A stretch of 64,000 bases of DNA from Escherichia coli (lineage in GTDB: Bacteria; Pseudomonadota; Gammaproteobacteria; Enterobacterales; Enterobacteriaceae), in assembly GCF_041886205.1 (NCBI RefSeq), contig NZ_CP169029.1; one strand, written 5' to 3'. The notes beneath the pieces are model-generated. The model made no database searches. It had not been told where the DNA came from and worked only from the letters and a program-made list of their open reading frames with translations. Shown one piece after another: positions 16,069 to 46,957 of this stretch. The stretch's first letter is position 1; each line of letters begins with the position of its first letter. Made by a program: the position numbers and the translations under genes.

Positions 16069-16490
16069 CCTCGCGCATACAGCCGGGCAGTGACGTCATC
16101 GTCTGCGCGGAAATGGACGAACAGTGGGGCTATGTCGGGGCTAAATCGCGCCAGCGCTGGCTGTTTTACGCGTATGACAGGCTCCGGAAGACGGTTGTTG
16201 CGCACGTATTCGGTGAACGCACTATGGCGACGCTGGGGCGTCTTATGAGCCTGCTGTCACCCTTTGACGTGGTGATATGGATGACGGATGGCTGGCCGCT
16301 GTATGAATCCCGCCTGAAGGGAAAGCTGCACGTAATCAGCAAGCGATATACGCAGCGAATTGAGCGGCATAACCTGAATCTGAGACAGCACCTGGCACGG
16401 CTGGGACGGAAGTCGCTGTCGTTCTCAAAATCGGTGGAGCTGCATGACAAAGTCATCGGGCATTATCTGAACATAAAACACTATCAATAA
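15987..16490 (+). CDS. insB: IS1 InsB frame
   Basis: Identical 167-aa translation to copy A InsB. Confidence 0.95.
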
Positions 16491-16505
16491 GTTGGAGTCA
16501 TTACC

Positions 16506-16569
16506 CCGCTTCCTGTGCCGACAGGACCGGCACTCGTCCATTAATACGAGGTGGTTTTACAGGTTTCAT
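16506..16569 (-). pseudogene. ydiF: ydiF 5' remnant (first ~21 codons), truncated by IS1 copy B
   Basis: Reverse complement of 16506-16569 reads atg aaa cct gta aaa cca cct cgt att aat gga cga gtg ccg gtc ctg tcg gca cag gaa gcg = MKPVKPPRINGRVPVLSAQEA, matching the YdiF N-terminus from memory. Confidence 0.7.
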
Positions 16570-21544: not shown

Positions 21545-21682
21545 CGTGTAATGGCTGCATGAAATAAACAATAAAATATAAATAACATTATCAGCCTGCT
21601 GACGGCTTGAAGAGAGTCACAGTATCTTGTGCAACATTATTGGAAAGAGTGAGGGGCGAGGTAGCGAAGTGGAAAAATGTTA

Positions 21683-21787
21683 AAAAAAAGCCCATCGTGG
21701 GAGATGGGCAAAGACTACACACAGCAATTCGTTGTTTCACTCAGGGGATTTCCATGCTTATAAATCAATATGTTGATTTATAACCGT
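21683..21787 (-). ncRNA. rprA: RprA small RNA (RpoS translational activator)
   Basis: Reverse complement reads ACGGTTATAAATCAACATATTGATTTATAAGCATGGAAATCCCCTGAGTGAAACAACGAATTGCTGTGTGTAGTCTTTGCCCATCTCCCACGATGGGCTTTTTTT, recognised as RprA with its terminator; lies between ydiL and ydiK as in K-12. Confidence 0.8.
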
Positions 21788-26937: not shown

Positions 26938-27036
26938 CGTTGTCACCAGAAAAGTGTGACGCATATTGCTTTTGGTCATTATCTGCACAGTAAACGGTGG
27001 TATACTGTGCAGGTCTTGTCTAAAAGCGAGGATGCT

Positions 27037-27225
27037 ATGTCTACTCAACTTGATCCCACCCAGCTGGCCATTGAATTTTTACGCCGTGACCAGAGCAATC
27101 TTTCACCTGCCCAATATCTCAAACGTCTGAAACAACTAGAACTTGAATTTGCTGACCTGCTTACTCTCTCTTCTGCTGAATTAAAAGAAGAAATCTACTT
27201 TGCCTGGCGTCTGGGCGTGCATTGA
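27037..27225 (+). CDS. ydiH: Small protein YdiH (62 aa)
   Basis: MSTQLDPTQLAIEFLRRDQSNLSPAQYLKRLKQLELEFADLLTLSSAELKEEIYFAWRLGVH, from the internal Met of ORF 26956..27225. Confidence 0.65.
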   Translation: MSTQLDPTQLAIEFLRRDQSNLSPAQYLKRLKQLELEFADLLTLSSAELKEEIYFAWRLGVH

Positions 27226-27419
27226 TCCTGACTTAATGCCGCAAGTTCGCCAAATCGACCTGGATTAACCTCCGTCCAGGTTCGATGACCTTCTTAATAC
27301 TGCTTATCTACCGCCTGATATTGTTCAAAAATAATACTAATCGCAGTTTGTGTTAAAACGGCGGGTTAGCTTTATGAGATTATTCTTATCGCCCCTTCAA
27401 GAGCTAAGCCACTGAGAGT

Positions 27420-27490
27420 GCCGGAGATAAGCGCCGGATGGGGTAGAAACCCTTAAGCCTGTGTCGCACAGACTTAAGGGTTTTCTTATT
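27420..27490 (+). ncRNA. Candidate small RNA ending in an intrinsic terminator (possibly rydB)
   Basis: Hairpin aaacccttaag ... cttaagggttt followed by tcttatttc at about 27451-27489; K-12 encodes RydB between ydiH and sufA. The RydB sequence itself is not recalled, so identity is inference. Confidence 0.35.
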
Positions 27491-27710
27491 TCTGAACGCT
27501 GCACTTTTTTACCTATCTCTTAAATAGTCATTTTCAATACAACTTTTTCTTTTTCATCACAGCCTTAATGCTCCTTAGATAATAACCATTATCTAACAAT
27601 GAGATACCTAATTCTTAGCGTGCCTGTTAACCCACACATCAGGGTCTATGCTTATTAAAAGCAGGCAAAAAGCATGTTTTACGGTAAAGCCCCTGCGTTT
27701 GCTGGGTTGA

Positions 27711-27729
27711 ACTGATAATCATTATCACT
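27711..27729 (+). promoter_or_regulatory. Fur box in the suf promoter
   Basis: actGATAATCATTATCac about 50 bp upstream of sufA ATG, close to the Fur consensus GATAATGATAATCATTATC; the suf operon is a known Fur target. Confidence 0.55.
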
Positions 27730-27772
27730 AACATGCTGTTATACGCTGAAAGCGATGAAGTGAGGTAAATCG

Positions 27773-28141
27773 ATGGACATGCATTCAGGAACCTTTAACC
27801 CACAAGATTTCGCCTGGCAAGGCTTAACGCTGACACCCGCAGCGGCGATACACATCCGTGAGCTGGTGGCAAAGCAGCCGGGTATGGTCGGCGTGCGCTT
27901 AGGCGTGAAGCAAACGGGCTGCGCGGGCTTTGGCTATGTGCTCGACAGTGTTAGCGAGCCGGACAAAGACGATCTGCTGTTTGAACACGACGGCGCGAAG
28001 CTGTTTGTCCCGCTGCAAGCGATGCCGTTTATTGATGGCACGGAAGTCGATTTCGTTCGTGAAGGACTTAATCAGATATTCAAATTTCACAACCCTAAAG
28101 CCCAGAATGAATGTGGCTGTGGCGAAAGCTTTGGGGTATAG
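27773..28141 (+). CDS. sufA: Fe-S cluster A-type carrier SufA
   Basis: 122-aa ORF with C-terminal CGCGESF motif. Confidence 0.95.
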
Positions 28142-28149
28142 GCGGTACT

Positions 28150-29637
28150 ATGTCTCGTAATACTGAAGCAACTGACGATGTCAAAACCTGGACCGGCGGC
28201 CCGCTGAATTATAAAGAAGGATTCTTCACCCAGTTAGCCACCGATGAGCTGGCAAAGGGGATAAACGAAGAGGTGGTGCGCGCAATTTCGGCGAAGCGTA
28301 ATGAGCCGGAGTGGATGCTGGAGTTTCGTCTAAACGCCTATCGCGCATGGCTGGAGATGGAAGAACCGCACTGGTTGAAAGCGCACTACGACAAGCTGAA
28401 TTATCAGGATTACAGCTACTACTCAGCACCATTGTGCGGTAATTGTGACGACACTTGCGCGTCTGAACCTGGCGCGGTGCAGCAAACTGGCGCGAACGCC
28501 TTTTTAAGTAAAGAGGTGGAGGCGGCGTTTGAGCAGTTGGGCGTTCCCGTGCGGGAAGGCAAAGAGGTGGCGGTGGATGCCATTTTCGACTCAGTTTCGG
28601 TTGCCACTACTTATCGCGAAAAACTGGCGGAGCAGGGAATTATTTTCTGTTCCTTTGGTGAGGCGATCCACGATCACCCGGAACTGGTGCGTAAATATCT
28701 CGGCACCGTGGTGCCGGGGAATGACAACTTCTTTGCCGCGCTTAATGCGGCGGTAGCCTCTGACGGTACGTTTATTTATGTGCCTAAAGGCGTGCGCTGC
28801 CCGATGGAACTTTCCACCTATTTTCGCATTAACGCAGAAAAAACCGGGCAGTTTGAGCGCACCATTCTGGTGGCCGACGAAGACAGCTACGTCAGCTACA
28901 TTGAAGGCTGTTCCGCTCCGGTGCGTGACAGCTATCAGTTACACGCGGCAGTGGTGGAAGTCATCATCCATAAAAACGCCGAGGTGAAATATTCCACGGT
29001 ACAAAACTGGTTTCCTGGCGATAACAACACCGGCGGTATTCTCAACTTCGTCACCAAGCGTGCTTTGTGCGAAGGCGAAAACAGCAAAATGTCATGGACG
29101 CAATCAGAAACCGGGTCAGCGATTACGTGGAAATATCCCAGCTGCATTTTGCGCGGCGATAACTCCATTGGTGAGTTTTACTCAGTGGCGCTGACCAGCG
29201 GTCATCAGCAAGCGGATACCGGCACCAAGATGATCCACATCGGTAAAAACACCAAATCGACCATTATCTCGAAAGGGATCTCTGCCGGACATAGTCAGAA
29301 CAGTTATCGCGGCTTAGTGAAAATCATGCCGACGGCAACCAATGCGCGCAATTTCACTCAGTGCGACTCAATGCTGATTGGCGCTAATTGTGGGGCGCAT
29401 ACCTTCCCGTATGTCGAATGTCGCAATAACAGTGCACAACTGGAGCACGAGGCAACGACATCACGTATTGGTGAAGATCAACTGTTTTACTGCCTGCAAC
29501 GCGGGATCAGCGAAGAAGACGCCATCTCGATGATTGTTAACGGTTTCTGCAAAGACGTGTTCTCAGAACTGCCGCTGGAATTTGCCGTTGAAGCACAAAA
29601 ACTCCTCGCCATCAGTCTTGAACACAGCGTCGGATAA
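28150..29637 (+). CDS. sufB: Fe-S cluster scaffold SufB
   Basis: [26 protein letters not shown]...; start chosen at the conserved Met 13 codons inside ORF 28111..29637. Confidence 0.95.
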
Positions 29638-29646
29638 GGAATAAAT

Positions 29647-30393
29647 ATGTTAAGTATTAAAGATTTACACGTTAGCGTGGAAGATAAAGCTATCCTGCGC
29701 GGATTAAGCCTCGACGTTCGTCCCGGCGAAGTTCACGCCATTATGGGGCCAAACGGTTCGGGCAAAAGTACCTTATCGGCAACGCTTGCCGGGCGCGAAG
29801 ATTATGAAGTGACGGGCGGCACGGTTGAGTTCAAAGGCAAAGATTTGCTTGCACTGTCGCCGGAAGATCGTGCAGGCGAAGGCATCTTTATGGCCTTCCA
29901 GTATCCGGTGGAGATTCCAGGTGTCAGTAACCAGTTTTTCCTGCAAACGGCACTTAATGCGGTGCGCAGCTATCGCGGCCAGGAAACGCTCGACCGCTTT
30001 GATTTTCAGGATTTGATGGAAGAGAAAATCGCTCTCCTGAAGATGCCGGAAGATTTATTAACCCGTTCGGTAAACGTTGGTTTTTCCGGCGGCGAGAAAA
30101 AGCGCAACGATATTTTGCAAATGGCGGTGCTGGAACCGGAGTTATGCATTCTTGATGAGTCGGACTCCGGGCTGGATATTGACGCATTAAAAGTGGTCGC
30201 CGATGGCGTGAACTCGCTGCGTGATGGCAAGCGCTCATTCATCATTGTTACGCACTACCAACGCATTCTCGACTACATCAAGCCTGATTACGTTCATGTG
30301 CTATATCAGGGACGAATTGTGAAATCCGGCGATTTCACGTTGGTCAAACAACTGGAGGAGCAGGGTTATGGCTGGCTTACCGAACAGCAGTAA
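29647..30393 (+). CDS. sufC: Fe-S assembly ATPase SufC
   Basis: 248-aa ABC-type ATPase (GPNGSGKST, LDESDSGLD). Confidence 0.95.
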   Translation: MLSIKDLHVSVEDKAILRGLSLDVRPGEVHAIMGPNGSGKSTLSATLAGREDYEVTGGTVEFKGKDLLALSPEDRAGEGIFMAFQYPVEIPGVSNQFFLQTALNAVRSYRGQETLDRFDFQDLMEEKIALLKMPEDLLTRSVNVGFSGGEKKRNDILQMAVLEPELCILDESDSGLDIDALKVVADGVNSLRDGKRSFIIVTHYQRILDYIKPDYVHVLYQGRIVKSGDFTLVKQLEEQGYGWLTEQQ

Positions 30394-31639
30394 CGCGCTG
30401 CAACAGTGGCATCACTTGTTTGAAGCTGAAGGGACAAAACGCTCCCCGCAAGCACAGCAGCATTTACAACAATTGCTGCGTACCGGACTGCCGACACGTA
30501 AACATGAAAACTGGAAATATACGCCGCTGGAAGGGCTGATCAATAGCCAGTTTGTCAGCATTGCGGGAGAGATATCCCCACAGCAGCGTGATGCCTTAGC
30601 GTTAACGTTAGACTCCGTGCGGCTGGTGTTTGTCGATGGGCGTTACGTGCCCGCACTGAGCGATGCAACTGAAGGCAGCGGATATGAAGTGAGCATTAAC
30701 GACGACCGTCAGGGTTTACCCGACGCTATTCAGGCGGAAGTGTTTCTGCATTTGACGGAAAGCCTGGCACAAAGCGTGACGCATATCGCCGTGAAGCGCG
30801 GTCAACGGCCGGCAAAGCCATTGCTGTTAATGCATATCACCCAGGGCGTGGCAGGTGAAGAGGTGAACACTGCCCATTACCGACATCATCTGGATCTGGC
30901 GGAAGGTGCCGAAGCAACGGTGATCGAACATTTTGTCAGCCTGAATGATGCTCGTCATTTTACCGGGGCACGGTTCACTATCAACGTCGCAGCGAATGCC
31001 CACTTGCAGCATATCAAGCTGGCGTTTGAAAACCCGCTCAGTCACCACTTTGCTCATAACGATTTGTTGCTGGCTGAGGATGCCACCGCATTTAGCCACA
31101 GTTTCCTGCTGGGTGGCGCAGTGTTACGACACAACACCAGTACGCAACTCAATGGCGAAAACAGCACGCTGCGGATCAATAGCCTGGCGATGCCGGTGAA
31201 AAACGAGGTGTGTGATACCCGTACCTGGCTGGAACACAATAAAGGTTTTTGTAACAGCCGACAGTTGCACAAAACTATCGTCAGCGACAAAGGCCGCGCG
31301 GTATTTAACGGTTTGATCAACGTCGCGCAGCACGCCATCAAAACGGATGGTCAGATGACCAACAACAATCTGCTGATGGGCAAACTGGCGGAAGTGGATA
31401 CGAAACCGCAGCTGGAAATCTATGCAGATGATGTGAAATGCAGCCACGGCGCGACGGTGGGGCGTATTGATGATGAACAGATATTCTATCTGCGCTCGCG
31501 CGGGATCAATCAGCAGGATGCCCAGCAGATGATCATTTACGCCTTCGCTGCCGAACTGACGGAAGCACTGCGTGATGAGGGGCTTAAACAGCAGGTGCTG
31601 GCCCGAATCGGTCAACGGCTGCCAGGAGGTGCAAGATGA
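30368..31639 (+). CDS. sufD: Fe-S assembly protein SufD
   Basis: 423-aa ORF overlapping sufC by 26 bp. Confidence 0.93.
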
Positions 31640-32856
31640 TTTTTTCCGTCGACAAAGTGCGGGCCGACTTTCCGGTGCTTTCGCGTGAGGTAAACGGTTT
31701 GCCGCTGGCTTATCTCGACAGCGCCGCCAGTGCGCAGAAACCGAGCCAGGTGATTGACGCCGAGGCCGAGTTTTATCGTCATGGCTACGCGGCGGTGCAT
31801 CGTGGTATTCATACCTTAAGCGCCCAGGCGACCGAGAAAATGGAGAACGTGCGCAAGCGGGCATCGCTGTTTATTAATGCCCGTTCGGCGGAAGAGCTGG
31901 TGTTCGTCCGCGGCACGACGGAAGGGATCAATCTGGTCGCCAATAGCTGGGGCAACAGCAACGTGCGGGCGGGCGATAACATCATCATCAGTCAGATGGA
32001 GCACCACGCTAACATTGTTCCCTGGCAGATGCTTTGCGCACGCGTTGGCGCAGAGCTGCGTGTGATCCCGCTCAATCCCGATGGTACGTTGCAACTGGAG
32101 ACGCTGCCTACGCTGTTTGATGAGAAAACTCGCCTGCTGGCAATTACTCATGTCTCCAACGTGCTTGGCACAGAAAATCCACTGGCGGAAATGATCACGC
32201 TTGCGCACCAGCATGGCGCAAAAGTGCTGGTGGATGGCGCTCAGGCGGTGATGCATCATCCGGTGGATGTTCAGGCGCTGGATTGCGACTTTTACGTGTT
32301 CTCCGGGCATAAACTGTATGGCCCCACCGGAATTGGCATTCTTTATGTGAAAGAAGCCTTGTTGCAGGAGATGCCGCCGTGGGAAGGGGGCGGTTCTATG
32401 ATCGCCACCGTCAGCCTGAGTGAAGGCACTACCTGGACCAAAGCACCATGGCGGTTTGAAGCCGGTACACCCAATACCGGGGGCATCATTGGTCTTGGCG
32501 CGGCGCTGGAGTATGTTTCGGCGCTGGGGCTTAATAACATAGCCGAGTATGAACAGAATCTGATGCATTACGCGCTATCACAGCTGGAATCTGTACCGGA
32601 TCTCACTCTCTATGGCCCACAAAACAGGCTTGGCGTTATTGCTTTTAATCTCGGTAAACACCACGCCTATGATGTTGGCAGTTTTCTCGATAATTACGGC
32701 ATTGCTGTGCGTACCGGACATCACTGCGCTATGCCATTAATGGCCTATTACAACGTCCCTGCGATGTGTCGGGCGTCGCTGGCCATGTATAACACCCATG
32801 AAGAAGTGGATCGTCTGGTGACCGGATTGCAACGTATTCACCGTCTGCTGGGATAA
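31636..32856 (+). CDS. sufS: Cysteine desulfurase SufS
   Basis: 406-aa PLP-dependent class V aminotransferase-fold ORF, active-site Cys region (RTGHHCA). Confidence 0.95.
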
Positions 32857-32868
32857 CAGGGAGGCACT

Positions 32869-33285
32869 ATGGCTGTATTGCCGGATAAAGAAAAATTGCT
32901 GCGTAATTTTTTACGCTGCGCCAACTGGGAAGAGAAATATCTCTACATTATTGAGCTGGGCCAGCGTCTGCCAGAATTACGCGACGAAGACCGAAGCCCA
33001 CAAAATAGCATTCAGGGCTGCCAGAGTCAGGTGTGGATTGTCATGCGCCAGAATGCGCAGGGAATTATTGAATTGCAGGGCGACAGCGATGCGGCGATTG
33101 TGAAAGGGCTTATTGCGGTCGTCTTTATTCTCTACGATCAGATGACGCCGCAGGATATTGTCAATTTCGATGTGCGTCCGTGGTTTGAAAAAATGGCGCT
33201 CACCCAACATCTCACCCCATCTCGTTCACAAGGTCTGGAAGCGATGATTCGCGCAATTCGCGCCAAAGCCGCTGCACTTAGCTAA
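32869..33285 (+). CDS. sufE: Sulfur acceptor SufE
   Basis: 138-aa ORF. Confidence 0.95.
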
Positions 33286-33433
33286 ACTAAAGGGACAGCT
33301 TTCATCCGGTTGGCTCACATTGCCGGATGGTCAATGTTTACACTGACCTGCACAGGAGTGTTTTGGTTTCAGGTGAACATAAGCGCCATCCGACGTTTCA
33401 GCGTGAGTCTCCGGCAAATACAGGAGGTTTACA

Positions 33434-34438
33434 ATGAAACGCGCGTCTTTGCTTACACTCACGCTTATCGGCGCTTTTAGCGCCATCCAGGCTGCCTGGG
33501 CGGTTGATTATCCGCTACCACCAACCGGAAGCCGACTGGTTGGGCAAAATCAAACGTATACGGTGCAAGAAGGGGATAAAAACCTTCAGGCTATTGCCCG
33601 ACGTTTTGATACTGCGGCAATGTTGATCCTTGAAGCCAATAACACTATCGCCCCGGTGCCAAAGCCCGGTACGACGATAACTATTCCTTCGCAACTGTTA
33701 TTACCTGATGCGCCGCGTCAGGGGATTATCGTTAACCTTGCAGAGCTGCGCCTTTATTATTATCCGCCGGGAGAAAATATCGTGCAGGTTTATCCGATAG
33801 GTATTGGCTTGCAGGGGCTGGAAACGCCGGTGATGGAAACGCGTGTGGGGCAGAAAATCCCTAACCCAACCTGGACGCCTACGGCAGGCATTCGTCAACG
33901 TTCGCTGGAGCGTGGCATTAAATTACCGCCAGTCGTTCCTGCCGGACCAAATAACCCGCTAGGACGTTACGCACTGCGCCTCGCGCATGGTAATGGCGAA
34001 TACCTCATTCATGGCACCAGTGCGCCGGACAGCGTTGGTTTGCGCGTCAGTTCAGGGTGTATTCGCATGAATGCACCGGATATTAAAGCCTTGTTCTCCA
34101 GCGTGCGGACGGGAACGCCGGTGAAAGTGATCAACGAACCGGTGAAATATTCCGTGGAACCTAACGGGATGCGTTATGTTGAAGTACATCGACCACTATC
34201 AGCAGAAGAACAGCAAAACGTTCAGACAATGCCATACACACTGCCAGCAGGCTTTACGCAATTTAAAGACAATAAGGCTGTAGATCAGAAGTTAGTCGAT
34301 AAAGCGTTGTATCGTCGGGCAGGGTATCCGGTTTCGGTGAGCAGTGGAGCAACTCCCGCAGCCAGCAATGCGCCTTCAGTAGAGTCAGCGCAGAATGGTG
34401 AACCAGAGCAAGGGAATATGTTACGCGCGACGCAGTAG
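33434..34438 (+). CDS. ldtE: L,D-transpeptidase LdtE (YnhG) with LysM domain
   Basis: 334-aa ORF, signal peptide, YkuD catalytic motif ([20 protein letters not shown]). Confidence 0.9.
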
Positions 34439-34453
34439 CGGTAAACGGCAAAC

Positions 34454-34485
34454 AAAAAAAATGGCGCACAATGTGCGCCATTTTT
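34454..34485. terminator. Bidirectional terminator between convergent ldtE and lpp
   Basis: A-run, palindrome tggcgcaca-a-tgtgcgcca, T-run. Confidence 0.65.
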
Positions 34486-34501
34486 CACTTCACAGGTACT
34501 A

Positions 34502-34750
<249 letters not shown>

Positions 34751-45029: not shown

Positions 45030-45415
45030 TGTTACTTACCTGTACGCATTCTTTCGAATTTAGTGTTATCAGATAAGTTTGGTTGAGATTTTTAGAATTT
45101 GAGAAATTTCAGACAGGGATGAAAAGGGCGCTAACCGCCCTTGATTAAATTCTGTCAGGCGAGTTTTGCCTGATTGATTTGACTCAGTGGCTCATTGACA
45201 TCGAAAACTTTGGCGACAACTTCCTCAACGCCGAGATTTTTAAGTCGGGCAGTATGTTTTTCCAGATAGGCAAGGGCGCTTTTTTCATCAGTAAAAAGAT
45301 AGATCCCACCGGCTTCGTGGTTCTTTTCACTTTCTGTCCATACCTTCCACAGAAAACCAGGTTCCTGATTAATTGAACCGCCCCGGGTTTCCTGGAGAGT
45401 GTTTTATCTGTGAAC

Positions 45416-46306
45416 TCAGGCTGCCAGATCATCGTTTCCGATGGAAGCATAATAAGCTTTTTCTGCTTCTGCCGGAGGAGTATGGCCCAGCCTTTCCAGC
45501 AATCGTCGATTGTTATACCAGTCCACCCACGTGAGTGTGGCCAGTTCCACTTCTGCACGGTTTTTCCAGCTCTTACGGTGTATTACCTCCGCTTTGTAAA
45601 GACCATTGATGCTCTCCGCCATCGCGTTGTCATACGAGTCGCCTGTACTTCCTGTTGATGCCAGTAATCCGGCTTCCTTAAGCCGCTGTGTGTAGGCCAG
45701 CGATACATACTGAGAACCTTTATCACTGTGATGGACCGTGCCGGACGGTCGACGGGCCCATAACGCCTGCTCCAGTGCATCCAGCACGAATGTCGTTTCC
45801 ATGGACGATGAGACCCGCCACCCCACGATGTATCCGGCAAACACATCAATGATGAACGCCACATAGACGAAGCCCCGCCATGTGCTGACGTAAGTAAAAT
45901 CAGCCACCCACAGCTGGTCAGGTCGTTCTGCCACGAACTGACGGTTTACGCGGTCGCCTGCGGCAACGGCTTTCCGGCTGATGGTCGTACGGACCTTTTT
46001 ACCCCGGAGAACACCGGCAAGTCCCATAACCGCCATGAGACGTGCCACAGTGCATCTGGCCACTCTGATACCTTCCCGTAACAACTGACGCCAGACTTTA
46101 CGCACACCGTATACCTTGTGATTTTCATCGTATACGCGCTGTATCTCTTTCTTCAGCCAGTCATCGCGCTGCGCACGGGCACTGCGTTTATCCGGATGAT
46201 GTCGCTGTTGCTGACAGTGGTAATACGTTGACGGGGCAATATGCAGTTCGCTGCATAGCGGTCCGACCCCGTACTGCTCACGCAGCTTATCCAGCAGTGG
46301 CATCAT
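45416..46306 (-). CDS. IS629 OrfB (DDE integrase-core transposase; normally fused to OrfA by frameshift)
   Basis: 296-aa ORF containing a DDE-type integrase core (WVADFTYV..., ...HSDKGSQY...). Confidence 0.9.
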
Positions 46307-46629
46307 TTTTTCCAGAGGCGGTCGAACTCCGCCTTCGCAAAATAAGCGGAAGCCTGGCGAAGGATATCGTTACTGCGGCGCAGTTCACGATTTTCACGTT
46401 CCAGCTCTTTCAGACGCTGACGTTCAGCGGTGGTGAGCCCTCCATCACCGCCCCCGGTATCCCGCTCATGCTGGCGAACCCAGACACGCAGAGTCTCCGG
46501 CGTACAGCCAATCTTTGGAGCAATGGAACAAATTGTCGCCCATTGTGAGTCATATTCGCTCTGACTTTCCAGAACCATACGGACTGCCCGTTGACGGACT
46601 TCGGGGGAAAAACGAGTATTTTTAGTCAT
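46303..46629 (-). CDS. IS629 OrfA (HTH transposase subunit)
   Basis: 108-aa [63 protein letters not shown]... Confidence 0.9.
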
Positions 46630-46880
46630 CCTGTTTACCTCTTTCTCAGGAAGTTTAGTCTCCAGGATTCCCGGGGCGGTTCAAATCGACTCAGCAAGCG
46701 GTTTAAGCTGCTCAGCCATTGCGTCGCCAAATGGGCCATTAAAAGCAAAATGAAGTTGTAACAAAGTTGCCATAGCGATTCTCCTTCTGATAACGCATAC
46801 GAAGACAGTGTAAATCTTTTAACGTATTGGATACAGAGAAGAAACAGAGGGAAAAAGGAGAAGACCAGATTAAGAAAATC

Positions 46881-46957
46881 TGGTGCGTCCGAGTGGACTC
46901 GAACCACCGACCCCCACCATGTCAAGGTGGTGCTCTAACCAACTGAGCTACGGACGC
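46881..46957 (-). tRNA. valW: tRNA-Val (anticodon GAC)
   Basis: rc = GCGTCCGTAGCTCAGTTGGTTAGAGCACCACCTTGACATGGTGGGGGTCGGTGGTTCGAGTCCACTCGGACGCACCA; cloverleaf and CCA end present. valV/valW assignment between the two copies is uncertain. Confidence 0.93.

Follow-up and report, generated by a model that had tools for sequence, protein, structure and literature searches.

Translational coupling between neighboring cistrons can arise when a ribosome on the upstream gene opens an inhibitory structure or when the same ribosome reinitiates, two modes that are both established and compatible with each other (PMC12548453). Termination-reinitiation is exemplified by gene pairs with −4 or −1 overlaps, such as hyfH-hyfI and menD-menH, and reinitiation efficiency falls steeply with distance (PMC10666635). 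Coupling over longer overlaps is known from the coat-lysis pairs of phages MS2 and fr (−38 to −50 nt), with backward reinitiation over −38 and −50 nt documented for the fr pair, and coupling through unfolding is known from rpmI-rplT (PMC12548453). Here we compare with these systems the sufABCDSE iron-sulfur cluster operon carried on a 64,000-nt stretch of Escherichia coli DNA (contig NZ_CP169029.1; the whole stretch is hereafter called the window). The operon is the well-known one of E. coli, its arrangement is ordinary and already known biology, and it has the same six genes, order, lengths and junctions (+8, +9, −26, −4 and +12 nt) as sufABCDSE of strain K-12 (b1684-b1679). A stop/start overlap of the termination-reinitiation type (−4 or −1) is present at sufD/sufS only, which is like hyfH-hyfI and menD-menH in having a canonical ATGA with a Shine-Dalgarno (SD) element inside the upstream gene, whereas the other suf junctions differ from that class. 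The sufD start, located 26 nt upstream of the sufC stop and within a predicted hairpin, is likewise comparable to the starts of the long-overlap and unfolding systems, with the difference that the suf case is built on computation and one in vitro data set and its hairpin is without covariation support. The reading that we favor, and consider probable, is a mixed one, in which sufB and sufD rely on translation of sufA and sufC, respectively, and the remaining four genes have autonomous ribosome entry.

The boundaries of the operon were obtained from the list of open reading frames (ORFs) and by direct reading of the junction sequences. The six genes are co-directional on the plus strand in the order sufA-B-C-D-S-E, and each product scored above its curated NCBIfam equivalog cutoff over essentially its full length. 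The first cistron, sufA (27773-28141; 122 aa), matched the SufA equivalog with 248.6 bits against a cutoff of 161 and is followed by sufB (28150-29637; 495 aa; 890 bits against 717), by sufC encoding an ABC-type ATPase (29647-30393; 248 aa; 541 bits against 400, aligned over residues 1-248 of 248) and by sufD (30368-31639; 423 aa; 798 bits against 489, aligned over residues 1-422). The last two genes are sufS for a cysteine desulfurase (31636-32856; 406 aa; 873 bits against 661, aligned over 1-406 of 406) and sufE for a sulfur acceptor (32869-33285; 138 aa; 268.7 bits against 160, aligned over 1-138 of 138). In addition, residues 1-423 of SufD matched the E. coli SufD chains of PDB entries 2ZU0, 5AWF, 5AWG and 11MP with 100% identity. 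The same boundaries are given in the Prokaryotic Genome Annotation Pipeline (PGAP) annotation of strain wlxctx60, the suf region of which is 100% identical over a 5.9-kb query, and the start coordinates of K-12 MG1655 in a published table and the annotation of a K-12-lineage strain agree with them. The K-12-lineage strain has SufD and SufS under the same protein accessions and is 99.4% identical over the 5.9 kb, the 33 substitutions including SufB Ser95Leu (28433) and a T/C difference directly before the sufC start (position −1), with junction distances unchanged. The 5.9-kb query found matches in 5424 of the 5426 complete E. coli genomes, 5413 of which contained at least 80% of its length. 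A preliminary description of this DNA had named the same genes and called the arrangement the expected one, and both statements are borne out by the annotation and the NCBIfam matches. Every E. coli annotation shows this arrangement, and operons for heteromeric complexes usually have compact junctions, so that by itself it matters little.

The preliminary description had further given four junction distances, i.e., +9 nt for sufB/sufC, −26 nt for sufC/sufD, −4 nt (ATGA) for sufD/sufS and +12 nt for sufS/sufE, which proved correct by the ORF list, the junction reading, the PGAP annotation and the K-12 coordinates; the +8-nt gap between sufA and sufB is the junction that it left out. Its model was that all four or five junctions are coupled by termination-reinitiation, with a single ribosome stream producing fixed stoichiometric amounts of the Suf proteins. 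Every junction is indeed 12 nt or less, and short overlaps or very short gaps are overrepresented where genes encode subunits of heteromeric complexes, with coupling dropping steeply as distance grows (PMC10666635). However, a −4 overlap is the commonest spacing of co-directional E. coli gene pairs, +9 to +12 forms a small E. coli-specific peak (203 pairs, 7%), and for this ‘+10’ class, to which the +8, +9 and +12 gaps of sufA/sufB, sufB/sufC and sufS/sufE belong, independent initiation from an SD in the spacer is thought likely, so that the +9 to +12 class is read as mostly independent initiation (PMC10666635). The spacing in relatives was determined at 80 loci around SufC homologues in species-representative genomes, in each of which the suf genes were located. 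Among relatives the sufB/sufC gap ranged from +3 to +120 nt and the sufS/sufE gap from +3 to +202 nt, the upper values being reached in other Enterobacterales, which again counts against uniform coupling; the sufA/sufB spacing ranged from −4 to +52, and sufD/sufS was −4 in most relatives, with −1, −8, −17, +1 and +13 also occurring. Judged from these loci, the tight sufB/sufC and sufS/sufE gaps are a trait of Escherichia and near relatives and not of the suf system. Moreover, SufB, SufC and SufD are found at 1:2:1 in the isolable SufBC2D complex, which is made in vivo (PMC5571166); this is unlike the yield of 1:1 coupling, which therefore cannot set the ratio.

We next consider the strength of the individual start regions. 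Every downstream suf start has an SD element, that of sufB being weak and badly spaced. In the 8-nt sufA/sufB spacer (28142-28149), the sequence AGGCGG overlaps the sufA TAG stop and leaves a spacer of 2 nt (duplex −7.0 kcal/mol), and most relatives have no SD core of at least 4 nt before sufB. The sufC SD, AAGGA (29636-29640), overlaps the TAA stop of sufB in the segment formed by this stop and the sufB/sufC spacer (29636-29646, with the 9-nt gap at 29638-29646), is spaced 6 nt from the start and has an anti-SD duplex energy of −6.2 kcal/mol, the median of the 42 starts in the window. The sufD SD, GGAGGAG (30354-30360), is made up by the sufC codons Glu237-Glu238 and lies 7 nt upstream of the sufD ATG. 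The sufS SD, AGGAGGT (31624-31630), falls within the final codons of sufD and is spaced 5 nt from the ATG that forms part of the 4-nt ATGA overlap (31636-31639) seen both in the junction reading and in the annotation, and the sufE SD, GGGAGG (32859-32864), lies in the 12-nt sufS/sufE spacer (32857-32868), 4 nt before the ATG. Among the 42 window starts the anti-SD duplexes of sufS (−11.6 kcal/mol), sufE (−11.1) and sufD (−9.3) ranked first, second and fifth. The predicted energy for opening positions −18 to +12 was 14.1 kcal/mol for sufD, the second highest of the 42 starts (median 8.3), followed by 12.7 for sufB, 12.5 for sufE, 9.8 for sufS, 7.8 for sufA and 6.0 for sufC, the start region of which is AT-rich and the lowest in the operon. 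Across 37 species the median opening energies were 7.0 kcal/mol for sufC, 14.2 for sufD and 13.3 for sufS, and sufC had the lowest value of sufB-sufE in 22 of the 28 complete loci.

Initiation from these regions has been recorded in INRI-seq, in which the start region of every K-12 gene, comprising 30 nt of upstream and 153 nt of coding sequence, was translated as an isolated RNA in a cell-free system with retapamulin (PMC9825163). These RNAs carry no upstream cistron, and thus de novo initiation alone is seen. The window and the K-12-lineage strain are identical across the construct spans of sufA, sufB, sufD and sufS. The pool abundances of the suf RNAs were alike, at 117-236 counts per million (CPM), and the ribosome-protected fragments in the five replicates amounted to 975, 680, 908, 682 and 618 CPM for sufA (pool abundance 166 CPM), 0 in all five for sufB (117), 41, 67, 43, 56 and 56 for sufC (211), 0, 0, 6, 0 and 10 for sufD (134), 55, 63, 70, 70 and 66 for sufS (236) and 358, 285, 388, 255 and 251 for sufE (155) (PMC9825163). 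The near-zero values of sufB and sufD beside the positive ones of sufC, sufS and sufE make upstream dependence plausible for sufA to sufB and for sufC to sufD. The same values count against coupling at every junction, since the start regions of sufC, sufS and sufE initiate autonomously in vitro, and we regard such uniform coupling as quite unlikely. Thus, of the stoichiometric, coupled expression proposed in the preliminary description, the coupled part can plausibly be kept for these two gene pairs, and its uniform application does not agree with the 1:2:1 ratio, the variable gaps and the autonomous starts. Tight spacing in this operon is not to be equated with uniform 1:1 coupling, as the comparative and in vitro data point to upstream dependence at sufB and sufD only.

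The sufC/sufD junction is where selection on a start site can be seen directly. The 26-nt overlap (30368-30393) is the sole overlap longer than 4 nt among about 40 same-strand neighbor pairs annotated around the window, and overlaps longer than −4 or −1 are rare (PMC10666635, PMC12548453). The sufD ATG is contained in the Tyr241-Gly242 codons of sufC (TATGG), which belong to the GYGW motif of SufC. At 37 loci, comprising Enterobacterales from Escherichia to Arsenophonus and one Vibrio, an ATG preceded the sufC stop by exactly 26 nt and had an AGGAG-type SD located 7-9 nt upstream of it (7 nt in most). V. sonorensis and Ca. Pantoea edessiphila have kept the same sufD ATG with shorter SufC tails, giving −23 and −17, and overall the ATG was found within the Tyr-Gly codons of the GYGW motif in 39 Enterobacterales and Vibrio species. 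Outside these groups (Thiotrichales, Methylococcaceae, Xanthomonadales-like lineages, Bacteroidota, Acidobacteria and others) sufC/sufD is mostly at −4, −1 or a small positive gap, so that the −26 layout is lineage-specific. Among the 37 species the codon is invariant at just 2 of 127 sufC positions with an invariant degenerate amino acid, namely Glu237 (GAG) and Tyr241 (TAT), while the other conserved SufC positions with these residues (six Glu and four Tyr) all have mixed synonymous codons. At the protein level, the first residues of SufD, MAGL, are conserved. The codon invariance and the MAGL conservation together argue that the sufD start and its SD are selected independently of the SufC sequence, and refute a reassignment of the start.

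Longer overlaps are rarer than those of −4 or −1 and are sometimes mis-annotations. This rarity, together with an in-frame TTG at 30416, could be taken to mean that the overlaps are annotation artefacts and that the true start of sufD (or sufS) is further downstream, an explanation that we hold to be highly improbable. The TTG at 30416 has no SD, whereas the ATG and SD of sufD are invariant at synonymous sites; furthermore, the NCBIfam profiles for SufD, SufS and SufE align from residue 1, the annotated sufD start is weakly detected by INRI-seq (>5 CPM in two of the five replicates), and alternative starts are absent from the INRI-seq lists for all suf genes, Table S3 being without a suf entry. 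The start-codon reassignment to which the preliminary description had exposed its overlaps is accordingly not what the sufD codons of the 37 species and the residue-1 alignments indicate. By these codon comparisons the 26-nt overlap is real, under strong selection and no annotation error. Separately, one Thiomicrorhabdus locus has an ATG 35 nt before the sufC stop, with an AGGAG SD 7 nt upstream, in the Gly-Tyr codons of the C-terminal motif of SufC, and this locus (L045) may be a candidate independent case of an embedded-start layout; its relatives L044 and L047 have no such ATG.

When the 121-nt context of the sufC/sufD junction was folded, the sufD SD and AUG were predicted to lie in a hairpin (30351-30407, plus strand) and to be paired with the region of the sufC stop codon (UAA), and the fold was unusually stable, with a minimum free energy of −41.9 kcal/mol and z = −3.4. 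The specific helix is offered as a prediction only, and a conserved structure is not claimed. Combined with the start-region data, the predicted fold suggests how the favored mixed arrangement might operate. On what is presumably a single polycistronic mRNA, the main entry point would be sufA, with efficient ribosome loading, and sufB, whose weak SD is followed by a start 8 nt past the sufA stop, would be translated mainly by ribosomes that have just completed sufA. The open, AT-rich start of sufC would allow independent loading, which fits a complex that requires two SufC subunits. Lying 26 nt inside sufC and locked in the predicted hairpin, where its AUG would be paired to the stop codon of sufC, the sufD start would then be used mainly when a ribosome at the end of sufC melts the hairpin, upon which either the SD would become exposed to a new 30S subunit or the same ribosome might reinitiate after a short backward movement. 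Finally, sufS (ATGA) and sufE (+12), which have the two strongest SDs in the window, would be able to initiate unaided, with reinitiation from the upstream cistron probably an extra.

Several observations weigh against this mixed model. A literature search for translational coupling in suf found no in vivo measurement and nothing specific. For the 37 species RNAalifold gave an alternative consensus fold that was weak (−5.2 kcal/mol) and had no compensatory pairs, and when the E. coli hairpin was placed on the alignment 76% of the cells were paired versus 69% with the partners slid by +3 columns, i.e., there was little covariation; start regions buried in coding sequence are, moreover, expected to be more structured whatever their function. 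Opening energy alone is a poor predictor, as the value of sufE is high and yet this gene initiates well in vitro. In INRI-seq, about 30% of all genes have no signal, truncated RNAs may misfold, and zeros are frequent for operon-internal genes such as ydhX, ydiT and rsxC (PMC9825163); the zeros of sufB and sufD are thus suggestive and not decisive. The in vivo Ribo-RET values that accompany the INRI-seq data are 0 throughout the suf operon (PMC9825163), which we attribute to repression of the operon in rich medium.

An alternative explanation is that there is no functional coupling, in which case compactness would reflect genome economy, ribosomes would enter each cistron de novo through its SD and the overlaps would be neutral by-products of the positions at which usable start signals arose. 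A recognizable SD is present at each downstream gene, those of sufS, sufE and sufD standing so high in the ranking of the 42 starts, and the synonymous-site constraint at sufC/sufD proves selection on start signals and not on coupling. On the other hand, the isolated start regions of sufB and sufD are essentially silent in vitro, yet SufB and SufD are produced in vivo within an isolable complex, and the −26 layout has been kept across Enterobacterales and Vibrio while other junctions drift. In addition, the sufD initiation site lies inside the region occupied by ribosomes finishing sufC, so that the end of sufC and the start of sufD are not independent. We therefore judge an absence of coupling to be unlikely, and continue to prefer the mixed model with dependence at sufB and sufD.

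A further-reaching possibility, which we put forward as speculative and rather improbable, is that the −26 layout of Enterobacterales and Vibrionaceae, with the SD and ATG of sufD set in the LEEQGYGW codons of SufC and base-paired to the stop codon of sufC, has been selected as a device for setting a ratio. If so, a fixed fraction, about half, of the ribosomes finishing sufC would make SufD, and the 2:1 ratio of SufC to SufD in the SufBC2D scaffold would be hard-wired; coupling of sufA to sufB would likewise limit SufB. A literature search for in vivo synthesis-rate or abundance data on Suf proteins found none. For engineering of the operon, refactoring, codon optimization or splitting of sufC and sufD would destroy the sufD start signals in SufC codons 237-242.

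Some further features of the operon were noted. A longer sufB ORF, with its start at ATG 28111 and a 31-nt overlap with sufA, was rejected, as it has no SD and its Trp-rich, junk-like extension derives from the sufA ECGCG codons; the family profile and the PDB sequences begin with MSRNTE, and where the gap is +7, +10 or +13, as in some relatives, the upstream ATG does not share the sufB frame. The genes sufB and sufC share a reading frame, being separated by TAA and three sense codons (GGA ATA AAT; 29635-29649), as do sufS and sufE, which are separated by TAA and four codons (32854-32871), and stop-codon readthrough would thus give SufB-SufC or SufS-SufE fusions. Codon 95 of sufB (28433) is TTG (Leu) here and in strain wlxctx60 and TCG (Ser) in the K-12-lineage strain; the residue adjoins Cys96 in the N-terminal Cys-rich stretch (YYSAP[L/S]CGNCDDTC), and two RefSeq SufB accessions mirror the difference. 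Long antisense ORFs of 246 aa opposite sufD (31124-31864, minus strand) and 250 aa opposite sufS (31816-32568, minus strand) were treated as chance products of codon composition.

The chromosomal context is typical of E. coli, ydiH-(rydB)-suf-ldtE-lpp, with ydiJ-menI-ydiH and rydB on one side and ldtE, lpp and pykF on the other. The small RNA rydB (Rfam RF00118, 81.6 bits) was located at 27391-27451 on the plus strand, the strand of suf, between ydiH and sufA. Consensus scans of 27000-34600 gave 8 promoter-like sites versus 7.2 expected from shuffled sequence and 11 terminator-like sites versus 8.5 expected, i.e., no excess of either. Other Rfam matches in the window were RprA (21680-21787, minus strand), the Phe leader (8425-8549, plus strand), STnc540 (12389-12547, plus strand) and STnc550 (55630-56020, plus strand), and a match to the ‘antisense RNA’ HPnc0260 (46757-46919, plus strand) overlaps a tRNA gene on the opposite strand.

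Beyond the operon, the window and its closest suf match are not collinear. An IS1 insertion sequence (IS) at 15738-16505 (region 15680-16569) connects the initial ~58 nt of ydiV with the initial ~64 nt of ydiF and stands in place of 16,311 bp of the reference strain, with which selO, hemP, aroH, ppsR, ppsA, fadK, ydiT, ydiS, ydiR, ydiQ, ydiP, ydiO and most of ydiF and ydiV have been lost. A 2-kb query across the ydiV-IS1-ydiF junction reached at least 80% coverage in 0 of 5,426 complete E. coli genomes, and the strain behind the window is therefore IS-rich and has an IS1-associated deletion that is apparently unique to it. The exact left-end repeat of IS1 recurs at 4494-4516 (minus strand), which implies another IS1 copy at about 3749-4516 (minus strand), upstream of thrS-infC-rpmI-rplT-pheMST. 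In addition, ydhR is interrupted at 45374-46683 by a 1310-bp IS3-family element with terminal repeats TGAACCGCCCCGGG... and a 3-bp target duplication; it carries orfA (46303-46629) and orfB (45416-46306) on the minus strand and an Rfam match to the ALIL frameshift pseudoknot (46232-46348), and from its size and ends we take it to resemble IS629/IS1203. Lastly, the annotation of the closest reference strain (record NZ_AP045833.1) lists lhr as a pseudogene containing an internal stop, and the equivalent of lhr in the window lies at about 59750-64000 on the minus strand.

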